DNA of 37,284 nt from a virus. Lineage: Duplodnaviria > Caudoviricetes. The position numbers were made by a program, and so were the translations under genes. The DNA is taken from positions 1 to 37,284 of IMG/VR virus record IMGVR_UViG_3300010382_000023, one strand, 5' to 3'. Position 1 is the stretch's first letter; every line of letters begins with the position of its first letter. Shown piece after piece: positions 1-34,868 of this stretch. Under the pieces are notes generated by a model. That model ran no database searches and was not told where the DNA came from. It saw only the letters and a program-made list of their open reading frames with translations.

Positions 1-711
1 ATGACGCATGACGCTTTATACAGTGAGCTTACAGTTGAATTAGAACAAGAGTATTCCAAACGAATCGCCGAAATAACCATCGTTGAAAACTTTGTAGAAT
101 ATCATAAAGGAACTGCAACTGAAGATGTTGTGGGTGTAATCAGAAAGTCTTTAATTATGGTGCTATATTCACATTTCGAAGGCTATTGTAAGCAGGTATT
201 ACAATATTATGTTATATATATAAATAAAGAGAAGATTCTGTCTTCAGATGCAAAATCAGGCCTAATAGCTGCAAACATGCACAAAGAATTTCGTAAATTA
301 CTTGATAGCAATCATAAACCCGTAAACATGCATGATTTACTCAAAGAAGACGGTGTTCTACAACAATATGGGCGAAGGCGAGAGTTCCTTGGTCACTGGG
401 GCGAATTTATGACAAAGGAAATTAATATCGGTGAAGATTTTATTGATACAGAATCGAACTTAAAATCTCATGTTCTTAAAAAAATAATGTTTCAATTAGA
501 GTTAAACTATTCAATAGTTGATACATACCAAAACGAAATAAATAAACTTGTAAATATACGTAATAGTTTTGCCCATGGAGATCGTGTCGGATACCCTACG
601 AAAAAGGAGTATGACAATTATAGAGACGCCGTAGTTCACCTTATGGAAAAACTAAAAGATGAAATTGAAACATCTTTTTTAGATAGAGCATATATAAAAG
701 TATCTTCCTAG
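1..711 (+). CDS. HEPN-domain protein (MAE_28990/MAE_18760-like or RiboL-PSP-like), putative RNase/defence moron
   Basis: LYSHFEGY helix motif and RNSFAH (Rx4H) motif near the C-terminus; visibly AT-rich; convergent with the lysis cassette. Confidence 0.75.
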   Translation: MTHDALYSELTVELEQEYSKRIAEITIVENFVEYHKGTATEDVVGVIRKSLIMVLYSHFEGYCKQVLQYYVIYINKEKILSSDAKSGLIAANMHKEFRKLLDSNHKPVNMHDLLKEDGVLQQYGRRREFLGHWGEFMTKEINIGEDFIDTESNLKSHVLKKIMFQLELNYSIVDTYQNEINKLVNIRNSFAHGDRVGYPTKKEYDNYRDAVVHLMEKLKDEIETSFLDRAYIKVSS

Positions 712-6186: not shown

Positions 6187-6291
6187 TTGATAGAGGAATC
6201 CCAAGCTGATATAATAAATTTATCAGTGGGAAACCTCTGACGCAATAAAGGATGAGCGAACTTTAGTCGGTGCTGCTCGTCCTTTATTTTT
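6187..6291 (+). ncRNA. Putative ~70-nt antisense RNA to the ant leader (Sar-like), with promoter and terminator
   Basis: TTGATA(6187)-N17-TATAAT(6210) with extended TG; hairpin AATAAAGGATGAGC...GCTCGTCCTTTATT plus T-run at 6244-6291. Confidence 0.7.
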
Positions 6292-6503: not shown

Positions 6504-9500
6504 CTACTTCTTCATGCCAAGTATTCTTAGCATTGTGTCGTAGTACGCTTCTGCGGCTTTTCTTTGTTCGACTGATAAGCCATCGTCGGCGCGCTTTTTT
6601 TCGATGTACTCGTTAGCCAGCGCCCGGGCCTGTTGCGGCACGGTTTTGCCTTCGGGTATCTTTACCCCGATTACCGCCGCCATGATGTTCATTTCGCTCG
6701 GCGAGAGATCGCTCTTTCCGTCCTTGTCGCGATCAAGGCCCACGATGGAGGTGAGCTTGCCCGCGTTGGTGTTTCCGTCCAGGTCTTTCAGCAGGTAGTA
6801 GGCTTCCATCTTGTCGATACCCTGCGCAACGGCGGCTTGATACTTCTCCGTTTGGGACTGCGTCAGTGTATCTTTGGAATAGCTGTAGCCCTTGGGTAAG
6901 ATGGAGGACGGGCCATTGAGCAGGATTTTGAAGTAGTTATGCCAGTCTGGCTCTGCCGGGTATCTCAACCGCCCATCGTCCGCATAGTAATCGCCCTTAA
7001 CAAAAACCGTGTCTACTCCCCACGCCGTTTTTTTGATTTGCCCGCCGCCCCAAGGGAAGAAGCCAAGAGCAATGTACGCCGCTTCGGTCATAAGGCTGCC
7101 CACATCTTTCTTGCTATCTGCGAGCGATGTAACGAATCTCCACAGATCACTTACATTACTCGCCAAGGGGGTGCGCCCCCCGCTCCACACGGAACCAAAA
7201 GGCAGTTGCTCCACCGTATCGGAAATGGCTGCGCCTGCGTCATCTGCTGTGGCTATATTTATCGCAATGTCGATGGGACTGAACGCCTGATCGCCACCAC
7301 CGATAAGCCAACGCTTAAACTTGTTCCATCCAAACATCAGCACCATGTAAAGCAGCACCCGCCAGATCGTTTCTGGCGGCATTCCCTTGATTTTTTTCTC
7401 CGGCGCGTCCCAGTCTATGCCCTCTGTTGTCCCTCCGTTTCTTTGCTCTATGGCGTAGATTTGTTCACCGATTGCCTGCCGCGAGAGATCGCGGAAGTGG
7501 AACATCTGGTTCCAGCCCTCAAGCATGAACTGCATCCACGGTCTTGCGGCTCTTGCTGTGAATATCAACGGAACCGTGCCTTTGTTTCTGTCGGCAAACA
7601 TTTTCACGAGGAAGTCATCGGTTTCGCGTATGGCATCTTCCGGGGTGTAGCCTTTTTCCATAAGCTCGCCATACTTCGCGCGCGCTACGGTTATTGTACC
7701 GATGCGGTCGGTTACCTCAAACCACCAGCCAAGGAAATTCCCAAGTCCACGTTTGACCCTATCTACCTTGGATATGATGATCTTCTCATTCTGTTCCAGC
7801 CTGCGTGCGAGAGTCGGGATTTTTTCCGTGAATCCGTCTTCGTTCTTGAAAATGCCATTCTGGAACGTGTTCAGTATAGCGATTGGGATTTGCTTTGCTT
7901 GCAACCCCGGTACAGATGAGAACAGCGATATCAGGTTGGACAATCCAACCGATATGTTTCCCGCAACGGCGGCCCCGCCGACCGTGCCCGTCAACTTATC
8001 AGATATCGTGTAGATTTCTCTGCCTGCCGCGGCCTCAAGCGCGCGGTCAAGATCGGGCTTTTTATTGGCAAGCTGGTTCGTATAGTCGTGCAGCCACGTT
8101 ATAAGCGCGCTGTTTTTGCTGCCTCCGCTGTTTTCTCGCAGATACTTTTCAAGCTGCCTATGCCGTTGAATAACGGGCGTCATGTAGATAAGGGAGGACG
8201 CGCCTTGCAAGTAGCGGTTGAATCCCCGTATCGCGTCGTATTCCGTCAAATCCCCCATCCGTTCAAGCATGTGGGAAACAAACTGTCTTCCGGGGCTGAA
8301 GGACGCCGTAAGCCCCGCGATAGAGGATGGAAGTTTTTGTGCCTCGCCCTTGATTATGTCGATGAAGTCCTGCGGCCCATAAGCCTCTCGCCCGATGTGG
8401 TGGAAGTACTCCTGCCGCATGGGGATGGGCGAATAGCCGTTCTCCGTAAGCGAGCCGTTTTGCATCGGCAACACGCGGGCGTAGAAGTCCACAAGCGCAT
8501 CTTTAAGCTTCTTGACATCCTCCATATTCGGCTTTTGACCGTCCTCGATCACCGCGAGAGCGTTCATACCGGCGTAAACCGTCGTAACGTTCCCACGTTG
8601 CTGGATGATTAGGTTGCCCTGCGTAGAGGTAGGCTTTGCGTTGTTGAGCGCGCTAAGGTACGCCTCGCGGATACCCTTGTAGTATTCCTCGTTGGGCTGT
8701 CCGCGCTTTCTCTTTGAGGCCTCCTTTGCCGCCGCGATCTCCGCCTTGCGCTGCTGCGCGCGGTACTTCGAATCGAACATGAGCAGTTCGTTGCCCGAGG
8801 AGAGCGCCACAAGCTGCCCACGTTTGTCGAACAAGAACACGCCGTTTTCGGTTTTAACGACCATGTTCTTTTTGCCATAAATGGCGTTTGCCGCGTCTTT
8901 TTCGGCTATGATGCCCTCGCCAAGCATTTGTGCTAACGTGGAGGTGCTTTGCTTCCCGTCAAACGCTTCTAGCACCTTTGCTGTCTCGGCGTTCTCCCAC
9001 AGCGTGGCGGCTGCACCTTGGTCTTTCAAATACCCCAAATAGGTGTCCCGCAAGCGGTTACCCTCGAGGTAGTTTCCTGCGCGACCCTCCGATGTTTTCG
9101 TATCCCGCCAATTCGCAACATCTTCCCATATCCGGGCGGGGAACGAAAACGTAAGGGCGAGCTGCTTGCCGACCTCTCCGATAACGGATGGCTCGTTCCA
9201 CAGCTTCACATTTTCCAACAGCTTATCGAGTTCGACAGAGTTTATCATGCCGCCTTGGTTGAAGCCGTTGGCGAGGTACATACCCCTCAAAGCCAGCGCG
9301 ACTTCGTGATCTGCTCCGCCTTGTTGGTAATACTCCGCCACGGAAATACGCTCGCGGTATAACCGCTGCACCTCGCGCAGTTGCTTGATCTCGCGACCAA
9401 GCGTTTTCATGCGCTGTTCTTGTTTTAGCGTTTGAACTTGCTTCTCAAGCTCCGCACGGTCGCTTCCCGTGAGGCGTTGCTTCTCTCCGTCAATGGTGGT

Positions 9501-12500
9501 ATCTACGTAATAGGTCCCATCTTTTTTCTGATGAATGGCCGGCATGGGATAACTAACTTCGATGCCCTCGCCAATATCAAAGGAAATACGCGAGTGTTCA
9601 ATATTTTCGTTGCTATTTTCGGTGGAATCGAGTACGCTAGTTATAAGGACGTCATCAGCACTCGCCTCGGGTAATTGTTTCCCGTTGGAAAGAAGCTGCC
9701 TGATGTCCTCATTATTTTTGTTGCTTTCTTCAGCGGCTTCGAATATACTTTTATTAGGATTTAGGTGGGCATGTAAAGTCCCGCCGTTTCCGATAAGGAT
9801 TTCGTTAGAATCCACCTCGGGTAATTGTTTCCCGCTGACCAGGATCTGATGATCGTCCTTATTTTTTTTGTTGCTATTTCCAGTGGAATTGAGTATATTA
9901 GTTATGAAGATGTCGTCAGTGCTCGCCTCGGGAAATGACTTCCCGTTGGAAAGAAGCTGCATGATGTCTTCATTTTTTCTGGTATACCGCGTGCCTCCAG
10001 CCTTTGCAAGAAGGCCTTTAAAATAATCGGCCTGAAAAACAGAGACAACTCTGGTTTCCATCTCAATAGCACCCTGAACATTAAGATGGAATGGAATAAT
10101 TATTGGTTTACCGCTTTGATCTTTCCATTCAGTTACTACTATATAACTCTTATATCCCCCCTTGTTTGGCTGTGGATTATCCATAATTGCAACCGGATCG
10201 TCTATCTGGAATGGTAATTGCTTTAACACCGACATTCCAAGGTTATGCTTCCCATTAAAATAGCTTAATGGATAGGCAATTTTCCTTGCCGTTGATTGTT
10301 CCATGTAAAGTGTACGGTCAGGAAAACCATTTTCAATCAGAATTCCCGGGGTCTTGCCGAGAATAACCATCTGGCCCGATGGTAACGAGCCATCGAAAAC
10401 ACCATCTATTTCTTGATGATACCGTCTAAGATTATCCTCGTCGGTAATAGGTAGAGTTTTTGCTTCTTCTCGACTTACTTCGCGCCCACCCACCCGCGAA
10501 TACTCGACCTTATTGTCCGTCCACCGGGGTGTTTGTAGATTTTTGGCATACGGCCCCATATTGACAGATTTGAAAAGGTCGAATATACTAATACTATCTA
10601 CACCACCCGCACCACCTGACGCGTTCTGCGTCGGCGAGTTCAGCAAAGCTTGCTTTGTTGACAGCGGGTGGTGATCTATTTTGCTCACATCCACGTCATC
10701 AACAGCATAGCCATGCATCCGGTCAACCGTATCGTTGAGAGACAGTTTCAGCGTGGTCTTTACTGCGTAATACCCTCCATCGTATTTAATGAGGTTTACT
10801 AGGTATGTAAATTCGCTGTTCTCCGACTTTTCCTTCCCCGATACAGCCCTTCCGAGATACTTTGATGCTTCAAGAATTTGTTTGTATTGCGGAAGAATAC
10901 GCAGAAGTAACGTTTGGTGCTGCGCATCGCCATGCCTTTGATAGATGACTTTGCGCATGCCTTGCTTATAGTCCAAGATTACCGGCATGTTAAGCTCCGC
11001 AATCGTCACGGTTTCATTTCGCGTCCCGCTTTTTAAAAAGGCGTCCGCTTCTCTCTGCATGGTCGGTATGCCTTGGGCGGTATATATCGTAGTTGGATTA
11101 ATTACCGTAGCATCTACCCGCTCGCCCTTCCAACGCTCCGCAGGAAATAAAACAGCCGCCGTCCGCGAATACTCCGGATCGCCCGTTGCTTTCAGGTTGT
11201 CCGTTATAGCCGTTGTGTCCTTTACGGCTTCTGTATAGAACGCACCGCGGTTTACGAGGGCTTGCCAGAAGGCACGCTGGAAGTCGTTTTTTATATCCGC
11301 GTTTACTCCGAACGGGCGCACAGCTCCACCTTTATTCGTGCTCCACCAAGCACCATACATATCCGCGATGAGTTCGCGTGACAAGTCAACATGCCCTTCG
11401 TCTGGCGAAGAGATGCGCTCCGAACGATAGGCGGCATATTCGCTCACGATATCCTCGCCCCGATTGCTGAACGCCTCAATGACCTTTTGTCCCGCGGCAT
11501 TGATCTCGGGGATGTTGTGGGCGGTTTCATGAGCAGCCACATGTATGGGGTCGGCGCTATTGAGATTCACAAAGATTCTTTGCCCGTCCGTGAACCCCTC
11601 GCTGAACACATCGTCCGATTCGTACAAAAAAACATCGAGGGCGTTGATTCCCGCGATGTCTGTTATATCTGCCAATGCCTCTGTCAGTTCGGGCGGCGCT
11701 TCGTCCACAAGCCTTGCCGTTGCCTGTTTGCCGTCCGGAGTGCGCTTGTCAGCGATGTATCGTTTCAAGACCCGATCGGCCTGTTTGCGGCTTACTTCTT
11801 GTGCTTCGTTTCGGCTATCGCTTCTTCGTACTCCCTCTTGGCCTTTTTGGCGTCCCTGTTCAATTGAACCAGTTCGTGCAGTTTCTTCTCGTAAGGCCCC
11901 TGCGGTGCGTTGCGATCCACTGCCAACACCGGCCGTATCGGACGGATATCCTGCTTCTCTTCCATGGCTTAACTCCCCCTCTCGGCCTTCGTTTCGGCTA
12001 CTGCCTCCTCGTACTCTTTCTTGGCTCGTTTGGCGTCTTTGTTGATCTGCGCCCACTCTCGCATCGCTTTCGCGTAGGGGCAAGTCGAGGGCTCCCCGGT
12101 CGGTCTGCCCACCGGGCGCGCGTAGTGCAGTTCCTGCTTCTCTTCCATGGCTTAACTCCCCCTCTCGGCCTTCGTTTCCGCTATCGCTTCGTTGTATTCT
12201 TTCAGTGCTTGCTTCGCGTCCCGGTTGAGTTGCATCAGGTCGCGCAAGCCTTGCGCTTCCACCGACAGAGGCCGTTTCTCGCCCGTGCGTGGAATCTTTC
12301 CCAATATCGGTTGTATCAGCCGGATTCCCTGTTTTTCTTCCACCGTTTATCCCTCCTGCTTCTTGGTTAGTTCCTCGTACTCCGAGAGCACTTGCCGCGC
12401 TTCTTTGTCCAGTTGAAACAGATCTCTCAGTCCCTGTTCTTCCGGCGACAGAGGCCGCTTCTCGCCCGTCCGGGGAATTTTCGCCAATACTGAGCCGATT

Positions 12501-15308
12501 TCCCTGATTTTCCGTCCTTCCAACGTTTATTCCTCCTGCGGTCGTTCGGATGGCCTGTGCACTTCGCTGTACGCCGCTCTGCGCGGCTTCGCTTTGCTTG
12601 ATTATACTTTGTTCCTGCTGGATTTTCAAGGTCTGCGCGGCCTCTACAACGCCGTTTCGCAGACCTTTGAGCCTGTTTTCCGTCTTGATCTTCGCTGCGC
12701 CGTTCTTGGCGTTGGCAATCTCAACCTTTTGCAGGTATTTTGCTTTTGCCGCATTGAACGCCGCCTCGTCGCCCTTTTGCATGGCCGTGGTCATGGCGTC
12801 ATAGGAAGTCTGCAGGTCGGCCTTAAGTTCCATCTTGGCAATGTTGAAATCGGCATTTACTTCCGCAATCTGCGCTGTGGCCGTCTGGATGGTGTTTTGG
12901 AACTTCATCGCCGCCTGCGGATCGCTGCGCACCGCCGCCGCGTATGCCTCTGTAACGGCTTGTACGGCGGCTTCGTTCATACCCATATTCTGCGCCGCCG
13001 CGACAACTTCCGCGACTTGGGCGGTCTGCTGCTGGGTCAGCGGGGCCGCTGCGGGCGTTTCCGTGTTCACGAGCGCTTCCATGGGTGCACCCTGCGCAAT
13101 CGCCTGCGCGATCGCTTCCTGCGCCGCTTCCGATATACCGGGTGCAGCAGTGGGAATGGCGGCATTTTGCGGTGCCACTTGTTCGGTGGGCACGCCCGTC
13201 AAACCGCCCACGTTTGGCGCGGTGTTGGGCTGCACAGGAGAAGCCGCCCCCATAACGGCGGGCATTCCGGATGTATCTCCGGAATAAGCCCCGGTTCCCC
13301 CCGCTAACCCGCTTTTTATCATCCTGATCTGCTCATCAACGGCATCTAGTCCTTGGAGGACTTCGTTTATAAACGATTGCTGACCCGCATAATAGTGCTG
13401 CGAGATCGCGCCACGGATGGTTTTATTGTATTCGAGAATCTTTTCAAGAGCAGCAGCCCTTTGAGCGGGGGTCATGTTTTCATTCAACGTTGCCTGATAA
13501 TCGCGGCGCATTTGTTCGACCGCGTTTTCAAGATAAGCTTTATTCTGCTTTGTGACCTGCGCAGTATTCACCGCCGAGGTAATCGCCGAAAACAGGAACG
13601 AAACCGCGATATCCTGTGCAATTTGCTCTTTCGACGGGCGGCTTCCTTCGGGATACAGCCAATAAGTTGATGTGATTCTCCCAGCGGCAAAAGCGGTTCC
13701 GGAAAGCGTCTGCCGCAAGGCTTCCGCGAACGGCGTCTGTAAGCCATACTTGACAAGGATGGATTTTCCGAGATCGCCTACAACGATTCCCGCGATGCTC
13801 CCCGCTGCGCCGCCAACGGTGTTTATGCCCGCCTGTTTTAGCACGTTGCTTACCTGATCCCACGCGCTGTATTCAATAGGCTCGTACATATAGCCCTGTT
13901 CAAGGTAATAATCCTTCTTCGCCTGTTCGAGCTGGTTCCACTCATCGCGCGTTACGGTATTAGTCATTCCCTGATACGCTCCCTGCGCGCCGAATGTAAG
14001 GCTGTTAATAATCACTTTCTGTAGGGCCGGGGCCACTTTAGAAAGCCACGGAATCGCTTCTTGCAGCGCCGCTATACCGCCCCCTATGGCATCGCCCATC
14101 ATAAGCAAAGAAGTAAGATCACCTGTTACATTTCCGGCAGCGTATGCTCCTTCGTTCGCGGTCTTTATCTCGGCGAATTGCTCCTGAATGCTTTTGCTCG
14201 CTTCTGTCCTTGTTCCCTTTGCGGCAAGGTCGAAACCCTTATCCATGAGCCAATCGATTCCAAAGGCCTCCGCAAAACCGGCCCCAAAGCCCGCGCCCCA
14301 ATTCGATTTATTTTGAAGATTAATATAAACATTCTGGATTTCAGCCGGCATATTCGTATAAAAAACATCGCCCTGATCCACCACGGAATACTTACCCTGC
14401 ATTGCCTTAAGAGCGGCTTTTGCTTCGCGCTTTTCGTCCCCAGTAAGCGTATCCTTCTGCGAAAGTTCAACATACCTTGTCCAGTTATCGCCGAAGTTTC
14501 TGTGTCCTTCACTACTCTTGGCGATAAACGCGGCCTGTGCCGCTGCTTCCCGCTGTTTTTTCGCTTCCAACTCTGCAAGCTGCGCCTGATATTGCTCGTA
14601 TTCCTTCTGCTGTCCCCTCGCGATGCGCTGATGCTCCCAGCCGGAACGGGCGGCAGCATAAGCCTGACGCTCGGCGGCATACTTTTTCAGAAGGTCATCA
14701 TATGTTACGCCTTTTGTGTAGTCCTCGGTATACTTTCCTGCCACGGCTTCCTGTGTGGCTTTCAGCTTTTCCTCATCGAGCGCGCCCGAGTACGCGTCAA
14801 CTCCCTTCCATGCGGAAAGAACCGCGTCGGTGTACTCCTTCTGCTTCGCTTCCGTGGCAAGCGCGCCCTGCGCGTCGTAATAGTATTTTGAAAACTGCGA
14901 GTACGAAGGGAGTCCTTGCGAAAGAAGATAAAGATCGATATCGCTATCGGTATATTTGGATGCATACGAAACAGGCATATACCCGGCGGCCTTACGCGCC
15001 GTATCGATCTGATCGAGTACATTATAAGCGTCAGCCCATCCGGACTGATAATTCGACTTCACGCGATCCAAAACGTTCTGGTCAAGACCGGACAAATCGA
15101 TGGCAGGGGTTTCAGAAGCAAAGGTGAACTTGTCACCGTCACGTCTTAATTTTCCTGTTCCGCTCTTGACATAATTATAGAAATTCTTATATAGAGCACT
15201 TATTTCGGCGGAGCTATACGCTGCTGTGGCTGATGGAGTTTTTCCGTTTTTCCGCCAATCATCAAAACCTTGAAAAGCTTCAATAAAATCTCTTTTTGCG
15301 TCCGCCAT
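6504..15308 (-). CDS. Large polyvalent protein, probable virion ejection protein: Gly/Ala-rich hydrophobic helices, HExxH metallopeptidase, LPD3-like and MuF-C/PBECR-like domains, helical C-terminus
   Basis: 2934 aa at the position of podovirus internal proteins; HETAH at 11517-11531; YLVNLIKYDGGYYAVKTTLK...MHGYAV (LPD3-like, ~10690-11100); LGKTPGIL...HNLGMSVLKQLPFQIDDPVAIM (MuF-C-like, ~9985-10450). Confidence 0.8.
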   Translation of the reverse strand: MADAKRDFIEAFQGFDDWRKNGKTPSATAAYSSAEISALYKNFYNYVKSGTGKLRRDGDKFTFASETPAIDLSGLDQNVLDRVKSNYQSGWADAYNVLDQIDTARKAAGYMPVSYASKYTDSDIDLYLLSQGLPSYSQFSKYYYDAQGALATEAKQKEYTDAVLSAWKGVDAYSGALDEEKLKATQEAVAGKYTEDYTKGVTYDDLLKKYAAERQAYAAARSGWEHQRIARGQQKEYEQYQAQLAELEAKKQREAAAQAAFIAKSSEGHRNFGDNWTRYVELSQKDTLTGDEKREAKAALKAMQGKYSVVDQGDVFYTNMPAEIQNVYINLQNKSNWGAGFGAGFAEAFGIDWLMDKGFDLAAKGTRTEASKSIQEQFAEIKTANEGAYAAGNVTGDLTSLLMMGDAIGGGIAALQEAIPWLSKVAPALQKVIINSLTFGAQGAYQGMTNTVTRDEWNQLEQAKKDYYLEQGYMYEPIEYSAWDQVSNVLKQAGINTVGGAAGSIAGIVVGDLGKSILVKYGLQTPFAEALRQTLSGTAFAAGRITSTYWLYPEGSRPSKEQIAQDIAVSFLFSAITSAVNTAQVTKQNKAYLENAVEQMRRDYQATLNENMTPAQRAAALEKILEYNKTIRGAISQHYYAGQQSFINEVLQGLDAVDEQIRMIKSGLAGGTGAYSGDTSGMPAVMGAASPVQPNTAPNVGGLTGVPTEQVAPQNAAIPTAAPGISEAAQEAIAQAIAQGAPMEALVNTETPAAAPLTQQQTAQVAEVVAAAQNMGMNEAAVQAVTEAYAAAVRSDPQAAMKFQNTIQTATAQIAEVNADFNIAKMELKADLQTSYDAMTTAMQKGDEAAFNAAKAKYLQKVEIANAKNGAAKIKTENRLKGLRNGVVEAAQTLKIQQEQSIIKQSEAAQSGVQRSAQAIRTTAGGINVGRTENQGNRLSIGENSPDGREAASVAGRTGTERSVSTGQRSAASALGVRGTNQEAGGINGGRKTGNPADTTDIGKDSTHGRETASVGGSARLARPDATQPGREASTERIQRSDSGNEGREGELSHGREAGTALRAPGGQTDRGALDLPLRESDARVGADQQRRQTSQERVRGGSSRNEGREGELSHGREAGYPSDTAGVGSGSQRTAGALREETARTGSIEQGRQKGQEGVRRSDSRNEAQEVSRKQADRVLKRYIADKRTPDGKQATARLVDEAPPELTEALADITDIAGINALDVFLYESDDVFSEGFTDGQRIFVNLNSADPIHVAAHETAHNIPEINAAGQKVIEAFSNRGEDIVSEYAAYRSERISSPDEGHVDLSRELIADMYGAWWSTNKGGAVRPFGVNADIKNDFQRAFWQALVNRGAFYTEAVKDTTAITDNLKATGDPEYSRTAAVLFPAERWKGERVDATVINPTTIYTAQGIPTMQREADAFLKSGTRNETVTIAELNMPVILDYKQGMRKVIYQRHGDAQHQTLLLRILPQYKQILEASKYLGRAVSGKEKSENSEFTYLVNLIKYDGGYYAVKTTLKLSLNDTVDRMHGYAVDDVDVSKIDHHPLSTKQALLNSPTQNASGGAGGVDSISIFDLFKSVNMGPYAKNLQTPRWTDNKVEYSRVGGREVSREEAKTLPITDEDNLRRYHQEIDGVFDGSLPSGQMVILGKTPGILIENGFPDRTLYMEQSTARKIAYPLSYFNGKHNLGMSVLKQLPFQIDDPVAIMDNPQPNKGGYKSYIVVTEWKDQSGKPIIIPFHLNVQGAIEMETRVVSVFQADYFKGLLAKAGGTRYTRKNEDIMQLLSNGKSFPEASTDDIFITNILNSTGNSNKKNKDDHQILVSGKQLPEVDSNEILIGNGGTLHAHLNPNKSIFEAAEESNKNNEDIRQLLSNGKQLPEASADDVLITSVLDSTENSNENIEHSRISFDIGEGIEVSYPMPAIHQKKDGTYYVDTTIDGEKQRLTGSDRAELEKQVQTLKQEQRMKTLGREIKQLREVQRLYRERISVAEYYQQGGADHEVALALRGMYLANGFNQGGMINSVELDKLLENVKLWNEPSVIGEVGKQLALTFSFPARIWEDVANWRDTKTSEGRAGNYLEGNRLRDTYLGYLKDQGAAATLWENAETAKVLEAFDGKQSTSTLAQMLGEGIIAEKDAANAIYGKKNMVVKTENGVFLFDKRGQLVALSSGNELLMFDSKYRAQQRKAEIAAAKEASKRKRGQPNEEYYKGIREAYLSALNNAKPTSTQGNLIIQQRGNVTTVYAGMNALAVIEDGQKPNMEDVKKLKDALVDFYARVLPMQNGSLTENGYSPIPMRQEYFHHIGREAYGPQDFIDIIKGEAQKLPSSIAGLTASFSPGRQFVSHMLERMGDLTEYDAIRGFNRYLQGASSLIYMTPVIQRHRQLEKYLRENSGGSKNSALITWLHDYTNQLANKKPDLDRALEAAAGREIYTISDKLTGTVGGAAVAGNISVGLSNLISLFSSVPGLQAKQIPIAILNTFQNGIFKNEDGFTEKIPTLARRLEQNEKIIISKVDRVKRGLGNFLGWWFEVTDRIGTITVARAKYGELMEKGYTPEDAIRETDDFLVKMFADRNKGTVPLIFTARAARPWMQFMLEGWNQMFHFRDLSRQAIGEQIYAIEQRNGGTTEGIDWDAPEKKIKGMPPETIWRVLLYMVLMFGWNKFKRWLIGGGDQAFSPIDIAINIATADDAGAAISDTVEQLPFGSVWSGGRTPLASNVSDLWRFVTSLADSKKDVGSLMTEAAYIALGFFPWGGGQIKKTAWGVDTVFVKGDYYADDGRLRYPAEPDWHNYFKILLNGPSSILPKGYSYSKDTLTQSQTEKYQAAVAQGIDKMEAYYLLKDLDGNTNAGKLTSIVGLDRDKDGKSDLSPSEMNIMAAVIGVKIPEGKTVPQQARALANEYIEKKRADDGLSVEQRKAAEAYYDTMLRILGMKK
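9610..9719 (+). ncRNA. Embedded antisense sRNA unit 1 (promoter, long hairpin, T-run)
   Basis: TTGCTA-N17-TACGCT; stem AGGACGTCA/TGATGTCCT; apical CGGGTAATTGTTTCCCG. Confidence 0.6.
9721..9869 (+). ncRNA. Embedded antisense sRNA unit 2
   Basis: TTGCTT-N17-TATACT; extra 5' hairpin; stem ATAAGGAT/GTCCTTAT plus T8; same apical CGGGTAATTGTTTCCCG. Confidence 0.65.
9871..9978 (+). ncRNA. Embedded antisense sRNA unit 3 (adjacent to the MuF-C-like domain)
   Basis: TTGCTA-N17-TATATT; 13-bp stem ATGAAGATGTCGT/ATGATGTCTTCAT plus T-run; apical CGGGAAATGACTTCCCG. Confidence 0.65.
10561..10682 (+). ncRNA. Embedded antisense three-way-junction sRNA adjacent to the LPD3-like domain
   Basis: TTGACA-N17-TATACT; perfect 10-bp closing stem CACCACCCGC/GCGGGTGGTG enclosing two hairpins, one with a G(CUUG)C tetraloop. 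Confidence 0.7.
11792..11965 (-). CDS. Overprinted small protein D (57 aa, +1 frame inside the polyvalent gene)
   Basis: MEEKQDIRPIRPVLAVDRNAPQGPYEKKLHELVQLNRDAKKAKREYEEAIAETKHKK; ATG after GAGGGGGAG; paralog of A-C. Confidence 0.75.
   Translation of the reverse strand: MEEKQDIRPIRPVLAVDRNAPQGPYEKKLHELVQLNRDAKKAKREYEEAIAETKHKK
11969..12148 (-). CDS. Overprinted small protein C (59 aa)
   Basis: MEEKQELHYARPVGRPTGEPSTCPYAKAMREWAQINKDAKRAKKEYEEAVAETKAERGS; ATG after GAGGGGGAG. Confidence 0.75.
   Translation of the reverse strand: MEEKQELHYARPVGRPTGEPSTCPYAKAMREWAQINKDAKRAKKEYEEAVAETKAERGS
12152..12343 (-). CDS. Overprinted small protein B (63 aa)
   Basis: ORF-track entry MEEKQGIRLIQPILGKIPRTGEKRPLSVEAQGLRDLMQLNRDAKQALKEYNEAIAETKAERGS; GTG after AGGAGG. 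Confidence 0.75.
   Translation of the reverse strand: MEEKQGIRLIQPILGKIPRTGEKRPLSVEAQGLRDLMQLNRDAKQALKEYNEAIAETKAERGS
12347..12523 (-). CDS. Overprinted small protein A (58 aa)
   Basis: MEGRKIREIGSVLAKIPRTGEKRPLSPEEQGLRDLFQLDKEARQVLSEYEELTKKQEG; TTG after AGGAGG (12532-12537). Confidence 0.75.
   Translation of the reverse strand: MEGRKIREIGSVLAKIPRTGEKRPLSPEEQGLRDLFQLDKEARQVLSEYEELTKKQEG
12601..12629 (-). promoter_or_regulatory. Internal sigmaA promoter upstream of the overprinted gene array
   Basis: TTGAAA(12629-12624)-N17-TATAAT(12606-12601), about 80 nt before ORF A. Confidence 0.75.
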
Positions 15309-34677: not shown

Positions 34678-34754
34678 TGGTAGCGGCGACTGGATTCGAA
34701 CCGGTGACACTTCGGGTATGAACCGAATGCTCTGGCCAACTGAGCTACGCCGCC
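34678..34754 (-). tRNA. tRNA with CAT anticodon, elongator tRNA-Met type; probable integration target
   Basis: GGCGGCGTAGCTCAGTTGG...TT-CAT-AC...GGTTCGAATCC...CCA, 77 nt. Confidence 0.93.

Positions 34755-34792: not shown

Positions 34793-34868
<76 letters not shown>

Follow-up and report, generated by a model that had tools for sequence, protein, structure and literature searches.

The gene for the Rz1 lipoprotein of phage lambda is embedded in the +1 frame of Rz, and the orphan or poly-immunity arrays of bacterial toxin systems are made of tandem, diverged small paralogues that are free-standing genes. Overprinting is also documented among viruses in general (PMC8227390). Temperate phages of Firmicutes deliver MuF toxins, and the small ORFs that neighbour the toxin genes have been proposed to confer immunity on the producer and on the lysogen (PMC5576092); two immunity proteins have likewise been reported for one prophage effector (PMC11699363). 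The zincins, in turn, are the hub domain of the phage polyvalent proteins, for which self-processing or an attack on host proteins has been proposed (PMC5512222).

We report the analysis of a 37-kb virus record (37,284 nucleotides, here called the window), a temperate phage with genes for an integrase, terminases, a P22-like portal, a capsid and an adaptor protein, whose DNA was matched in one sediment metagenome sample. Inside its giant gene for a polyvalent protein lie four short ORFs in another frame, termed o1 to o4 (Table 1). Genes nested in phage genes are an established arrangement, as are effector-immunity pairs; the four-copy array and the evidence from a domain swap are new here, and no description of nested genes in polyvalent proteins was found in the literature, mostly the main texts of open-access papers.

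The locus shares with the MuF toxin/immunity pairs a phage-delivered effector domain and small ORFs that are candidates for protection. In those pairs the ORF follows the toxin gene, whereas in the window the ORFs lie inside the gene, out of frame and before an internal domain, with a promoter-like site of their own and in four copies. It is not a MuF pair as such: no N-terminal MuF head domain was found in the host protein, the effector-like domains are internal and the ORFs are nested upstream of the domain. Like Rz1, each ORF is contained entire in another gene, in the +1 frame, and possibly encodes its partner, although Rz1 is a single lipoprotein gene within a small gene and the window has tandem diverged paralogues in a neutral linker of a gene for 2934 aa. 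The poly-immunity arrays offer a parallel for tandem diverged paralogues beside one effector domain (here four copies, 28–61% identical), with the difference that their members are free-standing and those of the window are nested.

The host gene and its nested array

The host protein is large and joins several conflict domains (LPD3, MuF_C above the Pfam cut-off and a zincin), as polyvalent proteins do. With those of PMC5512222 it has in common the giant, multidomain build, the place in the virion module, an HExxH zincin with a downstream Glu, LPD3 and MuF-C; the available parts of that account describe no nested genes, whereas the host gene of the window has four. Its product is likely an ejection (internal virion) protein. 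The position of the gene, and the packaging and injection proposed for phi24B gp47, which we use as a comparison (10.64898/2026.04.10.717836), suggest that the protein would be packaged in the virion and injected.

Table 1. Coordinates of the nested ORFs, their signals and the domains of the host gene in the window
Feature	Position	Strand	Details
Host gene	6504..15308	(-)	2934-aa phage polyvalent protein; after portal, capsid, adaptor and virion genes
Internal sigma70/sigmaA promoter-like site	12601..12629	(-)	TTGAAA-17-TATAAT; 11/12 consensus
Nested ORF o1	12347..12523	(-)	58 aa; TTG start; SD AGGAGG at 12537-12532, -10.3 kcal/mol
Nested ORF o2	12152..12343	(-)	63 aa; GTG start; SD -11.2 kcal/mol; 61% identical to o1
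47-nt exact repeat, o2/o3 junction	12132..12178	(-)	Stop, SD, start
Nested ORF o3	11969..12148	(-)	59 aa; ATG start; SD -11.1 kcal/mol
47-nt exact repeat, o3/o4 junction	11949..11995	(-)	
Nested ORF o4	11792..11965	(-)	57 aa; ATG start; placed where relatives have their one nested gene
Zincin-like metallopeptidase domain	11250..11801	(-)	Host protein aa about 1170-1353
LPD3 domain	10734..11066	(-)	Pfam PF18798; aa 1415-1525; E 2.3e-06
Antisense promoter-like site and candidate three-way-junction RNA of ~90 nt	10561..10685	(+)	TTGACA-17-TATACT; after LPD3; converges on array
MuF-C (predicted RNase) domain	9984..10250	(-)	Pfam PF18819; aa 1687-1775; E 8.6e-12

The domain that follows the array carries the HExxH motif, as HETAH at 11531-11517, and a conserved downstream Glu (Glu1312) on a later helix. 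An earlier note on this DNA, made from the letters alone, had placed the motif correctly and ended the domain at 11720, though the zincin model reaches about 11800. In the numbering of the domain, H91, E92, H95 and E143 are invariant in all seven homologues, and the model (pLDDT 88.8) has three strands and helices. Its best fold matches are of the zincin type but weak (Z 5–6, E 0.06): in the fold searches no hit reached an E below 0.001 or a Z of at least 8, and no Pfam MPTase family matches the domain. In the host frame, no internal start that could express the zincin from the internal promoter lies before the domain with an SD better than -7.1 kcal/mol.

The four ORFs lie where the earlier note had put them, all offset by +1 from the host ORF (15308-6504), with gaps of exactly 3 nt between neighbours. 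Each is preceded by an SD, again as had been claimed, with duplex energies of -10.3 to -11.2 kcal/mol. These are the four strongest among the sense-strand nested starts of the host gene, and the SDs of o2 to o4 each fall within the final codons of the ORF before. A common ME(E/G) start had also been described; its methionine comes from an ATG in o3 and o4, and o1 and o2 begin with TTG and GTG. The ORFs are thus wholly inside another gene, in a shifted frame and with start signals of their own. The promoter-like site was located as described, 78 nt before the start of o1, and is one of seven sites in the whole window with at least 11 of the 12 consensus letters. An RNA run gave short contigs at a depth of 3–5 across the whole host gene and none over 12350-12879; such contigs show neither level nor start, and the library may contain DNA, so that neither the coverage nor the gap is taken as evidence.

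Contigs of the metagenome run from which the window probably comes give the four copies in the same order, with the 47-nt repeat at double depth; they offer no independent check on the window but argue against a misassembled copy number. For o4 a flexible N-terminal half and one helix (residues 24-56) are predicted, with pLDDT above 90 in the helix core. The peptides have no Pfam, PHROG or PADLOC family beyond weak helical matches, and the best ESM Atlas score for a nested peptide, 0.86, is a lead only. A profile of the four gave five matches among 1.84 billion representatives, all of them repetitive proteins and judged spurious. No relative of the array or of its host region was found in annotated phages, in viral contigs (single-sequence or three-row queries) or in metagenome contigs.

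Between the -10 box and o1, the nested-frame reading of the leader (12598-12527, minus strand) resembles the C-terminal end of a copy, and this segment is the fifth-best site for the helix profile; it may be what is left of a fifth copy that has decayed.

Selection on the nested frame and conservation in relatives

When the host linker was recoded synonymously, none of 2000 recodings gave more than two SD-led ORFs of at least 50 aa, against the four observed. The scarcity of stops in the +1 frame is not in itself significant given the host residues (five observed, a mean of 5.2 in the recodings). The similarity of the copies is clearer in the nested frame, as the earlier note had seen, with pairwise identities of 28–61% against 21–43% in the host frame. 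The frame-specific comparison that it had proposed separates the two frames: the pooled pN/pS among the copies is 0.55 in the nested frame (column bootstrap 0.43–0.70) and 1.07 in the host frame (0.83–1.40), and each of the six pairs follows suit (0.45–0.63 and 0.87–1.30, respectively), these values being uncorrected, with silent sites near saturation, and the six pairs of four copies not independent. Within the nested frame the helix has a pN/pS of 0.44 and the variable N-terminal half one of 0.69, at which no positive selection is seen.

In an alignment guided by the DNA alone, the mismatch frequencies are 0.41, 0.35 and 0.55 at nested codon positions 1 to 3; the third position of the nested frame changes most and that of the host frame least. 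GC content by codon position has a gene-like pattern in the nested frame that is absent from the host frame of the linker, which is also poor in bulky hydrophobic residues (11% vs 30%).

The relatives that carry a homologous zincin repeat the layout with a single gene. All four such loci with DNA (L001, the closest, which sits in a Bacillota genome, and L003, L004 and L005) have one SD-led +1 ORF, of 90, 106, 70 and 87 aa respectively, whose stop lies 269–281 nt before the HExxH codons, against 263 nt in the window. Orthologous promoter-like sites are present in L001 (TTGCGT-17-TATAAT) and L005 (TTGCAG-17-TATAAT), with a weaker one in L004; L003 has none of 9/12 or better before its nested gene. 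Between L001 and L005, 30 of 86 letters are identical in the nested frame and 10 of 86 in the host frame, with pN/pS of 0.64 and 1.33. Homologues that gained stops or lost the RBS in the nested frame had been named as what would speak against genes; the homologues found keep frame, SD and position. The peptides of L001 and L005 align with those of the window at 19–25% identity, which makes their kinship with the array likely but weak. As to whether the extra copies match effectors of other elements, close relatives are few, and all four window copies are 20–23% identical to the peptide of L001. In L005 the giant gene is split by a frameshift at about 9135-9520, shortly before the internal promoter-like site, as a sequencing error or in reality.

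For two further relatives, available as proteins only (P0002 and P0003, zincins 42% and 33% identical to that of the window), the helix profile was compared with about 2100 positions, and its best +1-compatible match falls 119 and 126 aa, respectively, ahead of HExxH, the distance for o4 being 119; five other proteins tested with the profile have no such peak.

The nested frame is under purifying selection (0.55 vs 1.07 here, 0.64 vs 1.33 in L001/L005), and by the measures above the host frame of the linker is neutral here. Because of this frame-specific selection, and because frame, SD and position are conserved in relatives, we judge o1 to o4 to be genes; the sequence evidence supports real, conserved, unannotated and overprinted paralogous genes.

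Two groups of gut-phage loci extend the layout. Their giant proteins are related to the window protein in the C-terminal part alone, their nested peptides are of another family, and the loci are not independent of one another. All 71 loci of group 1 keep a 55-aa +1 ORF that ends 266 nt before HExxH, with pN/pS of 0.31 in the nested, 0.56 in the host and 1.44 in the third frame (49 distinct segments). Among the 12 loci of group 2, nine zincins read HALFH and all nine loci keep a 64-aa relative of the 55-aa ORF. The other three, 80–82% identical over the first 790 aa, carry a different zincin (27–28% identical; HEAFH or HESFH); none of these has the 64-aa ORF, and two show a different 63-aa +1 ORF at the same place. 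In L096, which has the swapped zincin, the linker letters are nearly the same and the ORF falls below the threshold used. No promoter-like site of at least 9/12 precedes the nested gene in 70 of the 71 and nine of the nine loci; with L003 also lacking one, expression in the lysogen is not general.

Of eight more distant zincin loci, five have enough upstream DNA and none of the five has a convincing abutting nested ORF, so such zincins can do without one; in another frame of one distant locus, L011, an R-rich stretch of 69 codons runs into the zincin domain. A second nested copy was found in none of 87 loci, although the SD filter of one scan was strict and some single genes escaped it, and the four-copy array appears unique so far.

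Zincin variants short of a catalytic or metal residue (HALFH in L086-L097, HEIAE in P0004) occur with the preceding linker kept, and in L086-L097 working and dead-looking zincin modules alternate on one backbone.

What the nested proteins may do

The earlier note had taken the array for diversified inhibitors of the adjacent metallopeptidase or for other effectors expressed in the lysogen. The link to the domain has indirect support, in that a nested gene, where present, lies directly against the zincin and the two are exchanged together; inhibition and diversification fare less well, with one group that keeps the gene beside HALFH and no positive selection in the variable middle. The reading we favour, and rate at about an even chance, is that the products of o1 to o4 bind the adjacent zincin as cognate antidotes, and that the array widens or strengthens a protection that relatives encode with one copy. 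In our view the peptides most likely bind the zincin, because their gene abuts it and is exchanged with it, and because they are small and helical, as in effector-immunity modules, where a small protein is likewise co-inherited and co-exchanged with an effector domain. That said, the joint exchange of nested gene and zincin may come from physical linkage alone.

As antidotes, the small proteins would be made together with the giant protein from the late mRNA and hold its zincin in check while the cell produces phage; in a lysogen, where the internal promoter would supply them, they would blunt the zincin injected by superinfecting kin. A naive cell would receive the giant protein without them. 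The array would have arisen by tandem duplication of a single gene, in frame three times, so that the host linker only grew, and the copies would then have diverged under purifying selection. An SD in the tail of the previous copy could couple translation, and the extra copies might bring a wider range or a higher dose. Plain blocking of proteolysis cannot be the whole rule, because the HALFH group, which has lost the general-base Glu, keeps its nested gene and P0004 reads HEIAE.

The same observation bears on the first alternative, which we consider unlikely: that the small proteins are dedicated chaperones or packaging aids, which during late expression would attach to the zincin fold, whether active or dead, or to helices of the giant protein close to it and keep that protein soluble or loadable into the head, with no role in immunity. 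Retention of the nested gene beside a HALFH zincin would follow, as would the joint exchange with the domain, and for the gut-phage groups that lack a promoter-like site co-expression from the late mRNA would suffice. Such co-expression would, however, not need the near-consensus vegetative promoter-like site of the window, L001 and L005, and four diverged copies for a single client domain are hard to explain.

A promoter-like site of their own, and paralogue arrays that suit diversifying host targets, are what independent effectors would have, expressed early or in the lysogen (for counter-defence on host targets, for example) and using a tolerant linker as free coding space; the neutral host frame with its few bulky hydrophobic residues agrees with such tolerance. 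We nevertheless regard this as distinctly unlikely. The A/P/T-rich linker of the same protein (aa about 680-790) has no SD-led nested ORF, every group with a nested gene has it directly beside a zincin, with which it changes, and no stand-alone homologue appeared among the 1.84 billion representatives.

ImmA/IrrE-type proteases use the cleavage of a repressor as a signal, and the small proteins could similarly be substrates or sensors of the zincin, whose cleavage by an incoming protease reports superinfection or releases a signal. The flexible, variable N-terminal half before a stable helix could serve as bait and joint exchange with the zincin would be expected, but the peptides have no DNA-binding or other effector domain and a nested gene is retained beside the HALFH zincin, which makes this reading highly improbable. 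That the ORFs are no genes at all, a by-product of tandem duplication in a low-complexity linker, is hardly credible: the number of +1 stops is that expected from the host residues and there is no called homologue, but none of the 2000 recodings reaches even three SD-led ORFs, selection acts on the nested frame only, and frame, SD and position are conserved in relatives.

Annotation has missed these nested genes, although at least 84 of 87 related loci with a linker of this kind have the same layout. It accounts for the R/G-rich, 'low-complexity' character of linkers in polyvalent proteins, which would be the shadow cast by a helical protein encoded in the +1 frame. The array, evolving in tandem within another gene, shows that gene families can grow inside an open reading frame. 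The zincin is the commonest domain of these injected proteins, and cognate peptides would offer a direct handle on its role and control, as an inhibitor, a co-crystal partner or a means of cloning the domain. Should its copies differ in specificity, the array would also be a new way to immunity against superinfection. Next to other domains (ADP-ribosyltransferase-like, Zeta-toxin-like, helicase), too, R/G-rich linkers are present, in P0015 (aa 837-902), P0074 (aa 1186-1251), P0010 (aa 2288-2345) and P0025 (aa 1050-1150), which suggests further nested genes there.

Antisense sites and other features of the window

On the opposite strand, the three-way-junction fold that follows the antisense promoter-like site has a z of -5.6 in the window, and the same fold with different inner arms occurs in L001 (minus strand, 7226-7102; z -5.1). 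Inside the giant genes of the window, L001 and L015-L085, which are related loci, 63 antisense promoter-like sites, mostly TTGACA-17-TATACT, were found in 61 of 73 loci, against no sense site of at least 10/12 in the same 73. In the host frame the antisense sites read S-I-x6-V-N/K at domain ends, and hairpins of 70–90 nt follow, often with a U run; the hairpin matches no Rfam family. The transcripts are candidates for antisense or antidote RNAs of nuclease-like domains. A second antisense promoter-like site (TTGCTA-17-TATATT, plus strand, 9871-9899) follows MuF-C and falls within a repeated segment of the protein (aa about 1806-1900).

Taken with the nested array, these candidates would fit a hidden antidote layer in phage polyvalent genes, made of +1-frame proteins before zincins and of small antisense RNAs behind nuclease-like domains, each moving together with its domain; the array of the window would then be a four-member poly-immunity, encoded within the gene, by which lysogens disarm the injected zincins of several related phages. 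We offer this only tentatively and hold it, on balance, to be doubtful.

Elsewhere in the window, two tRNA genes (34681-34754 and 34796-34868, minus strand) lie beyond the integrase and are followed by bacterial-type cell-wall genes; this is probably the attachment site and the host flank. At the other end (1-711, plus strand), in the orientation opposed to that of the late genes, a RiboL-PSP-HEPN protein is encoded beside a 353-aa ORF that belongs to no family, and the two are possible prophage defence cargo. Downstream of the host gene (6487-5471, minus strand), a perfect promoter-like site is followed by a 50-aa ribbon-helix-helix-like ORF (6436-6284, a weak Pfam match) and an antirepressor gene, with an opposing promoter-like site (plus strand, 6187-6215) between the two, a region that we take to resemble the arc/sar/ant immunity region of P22.
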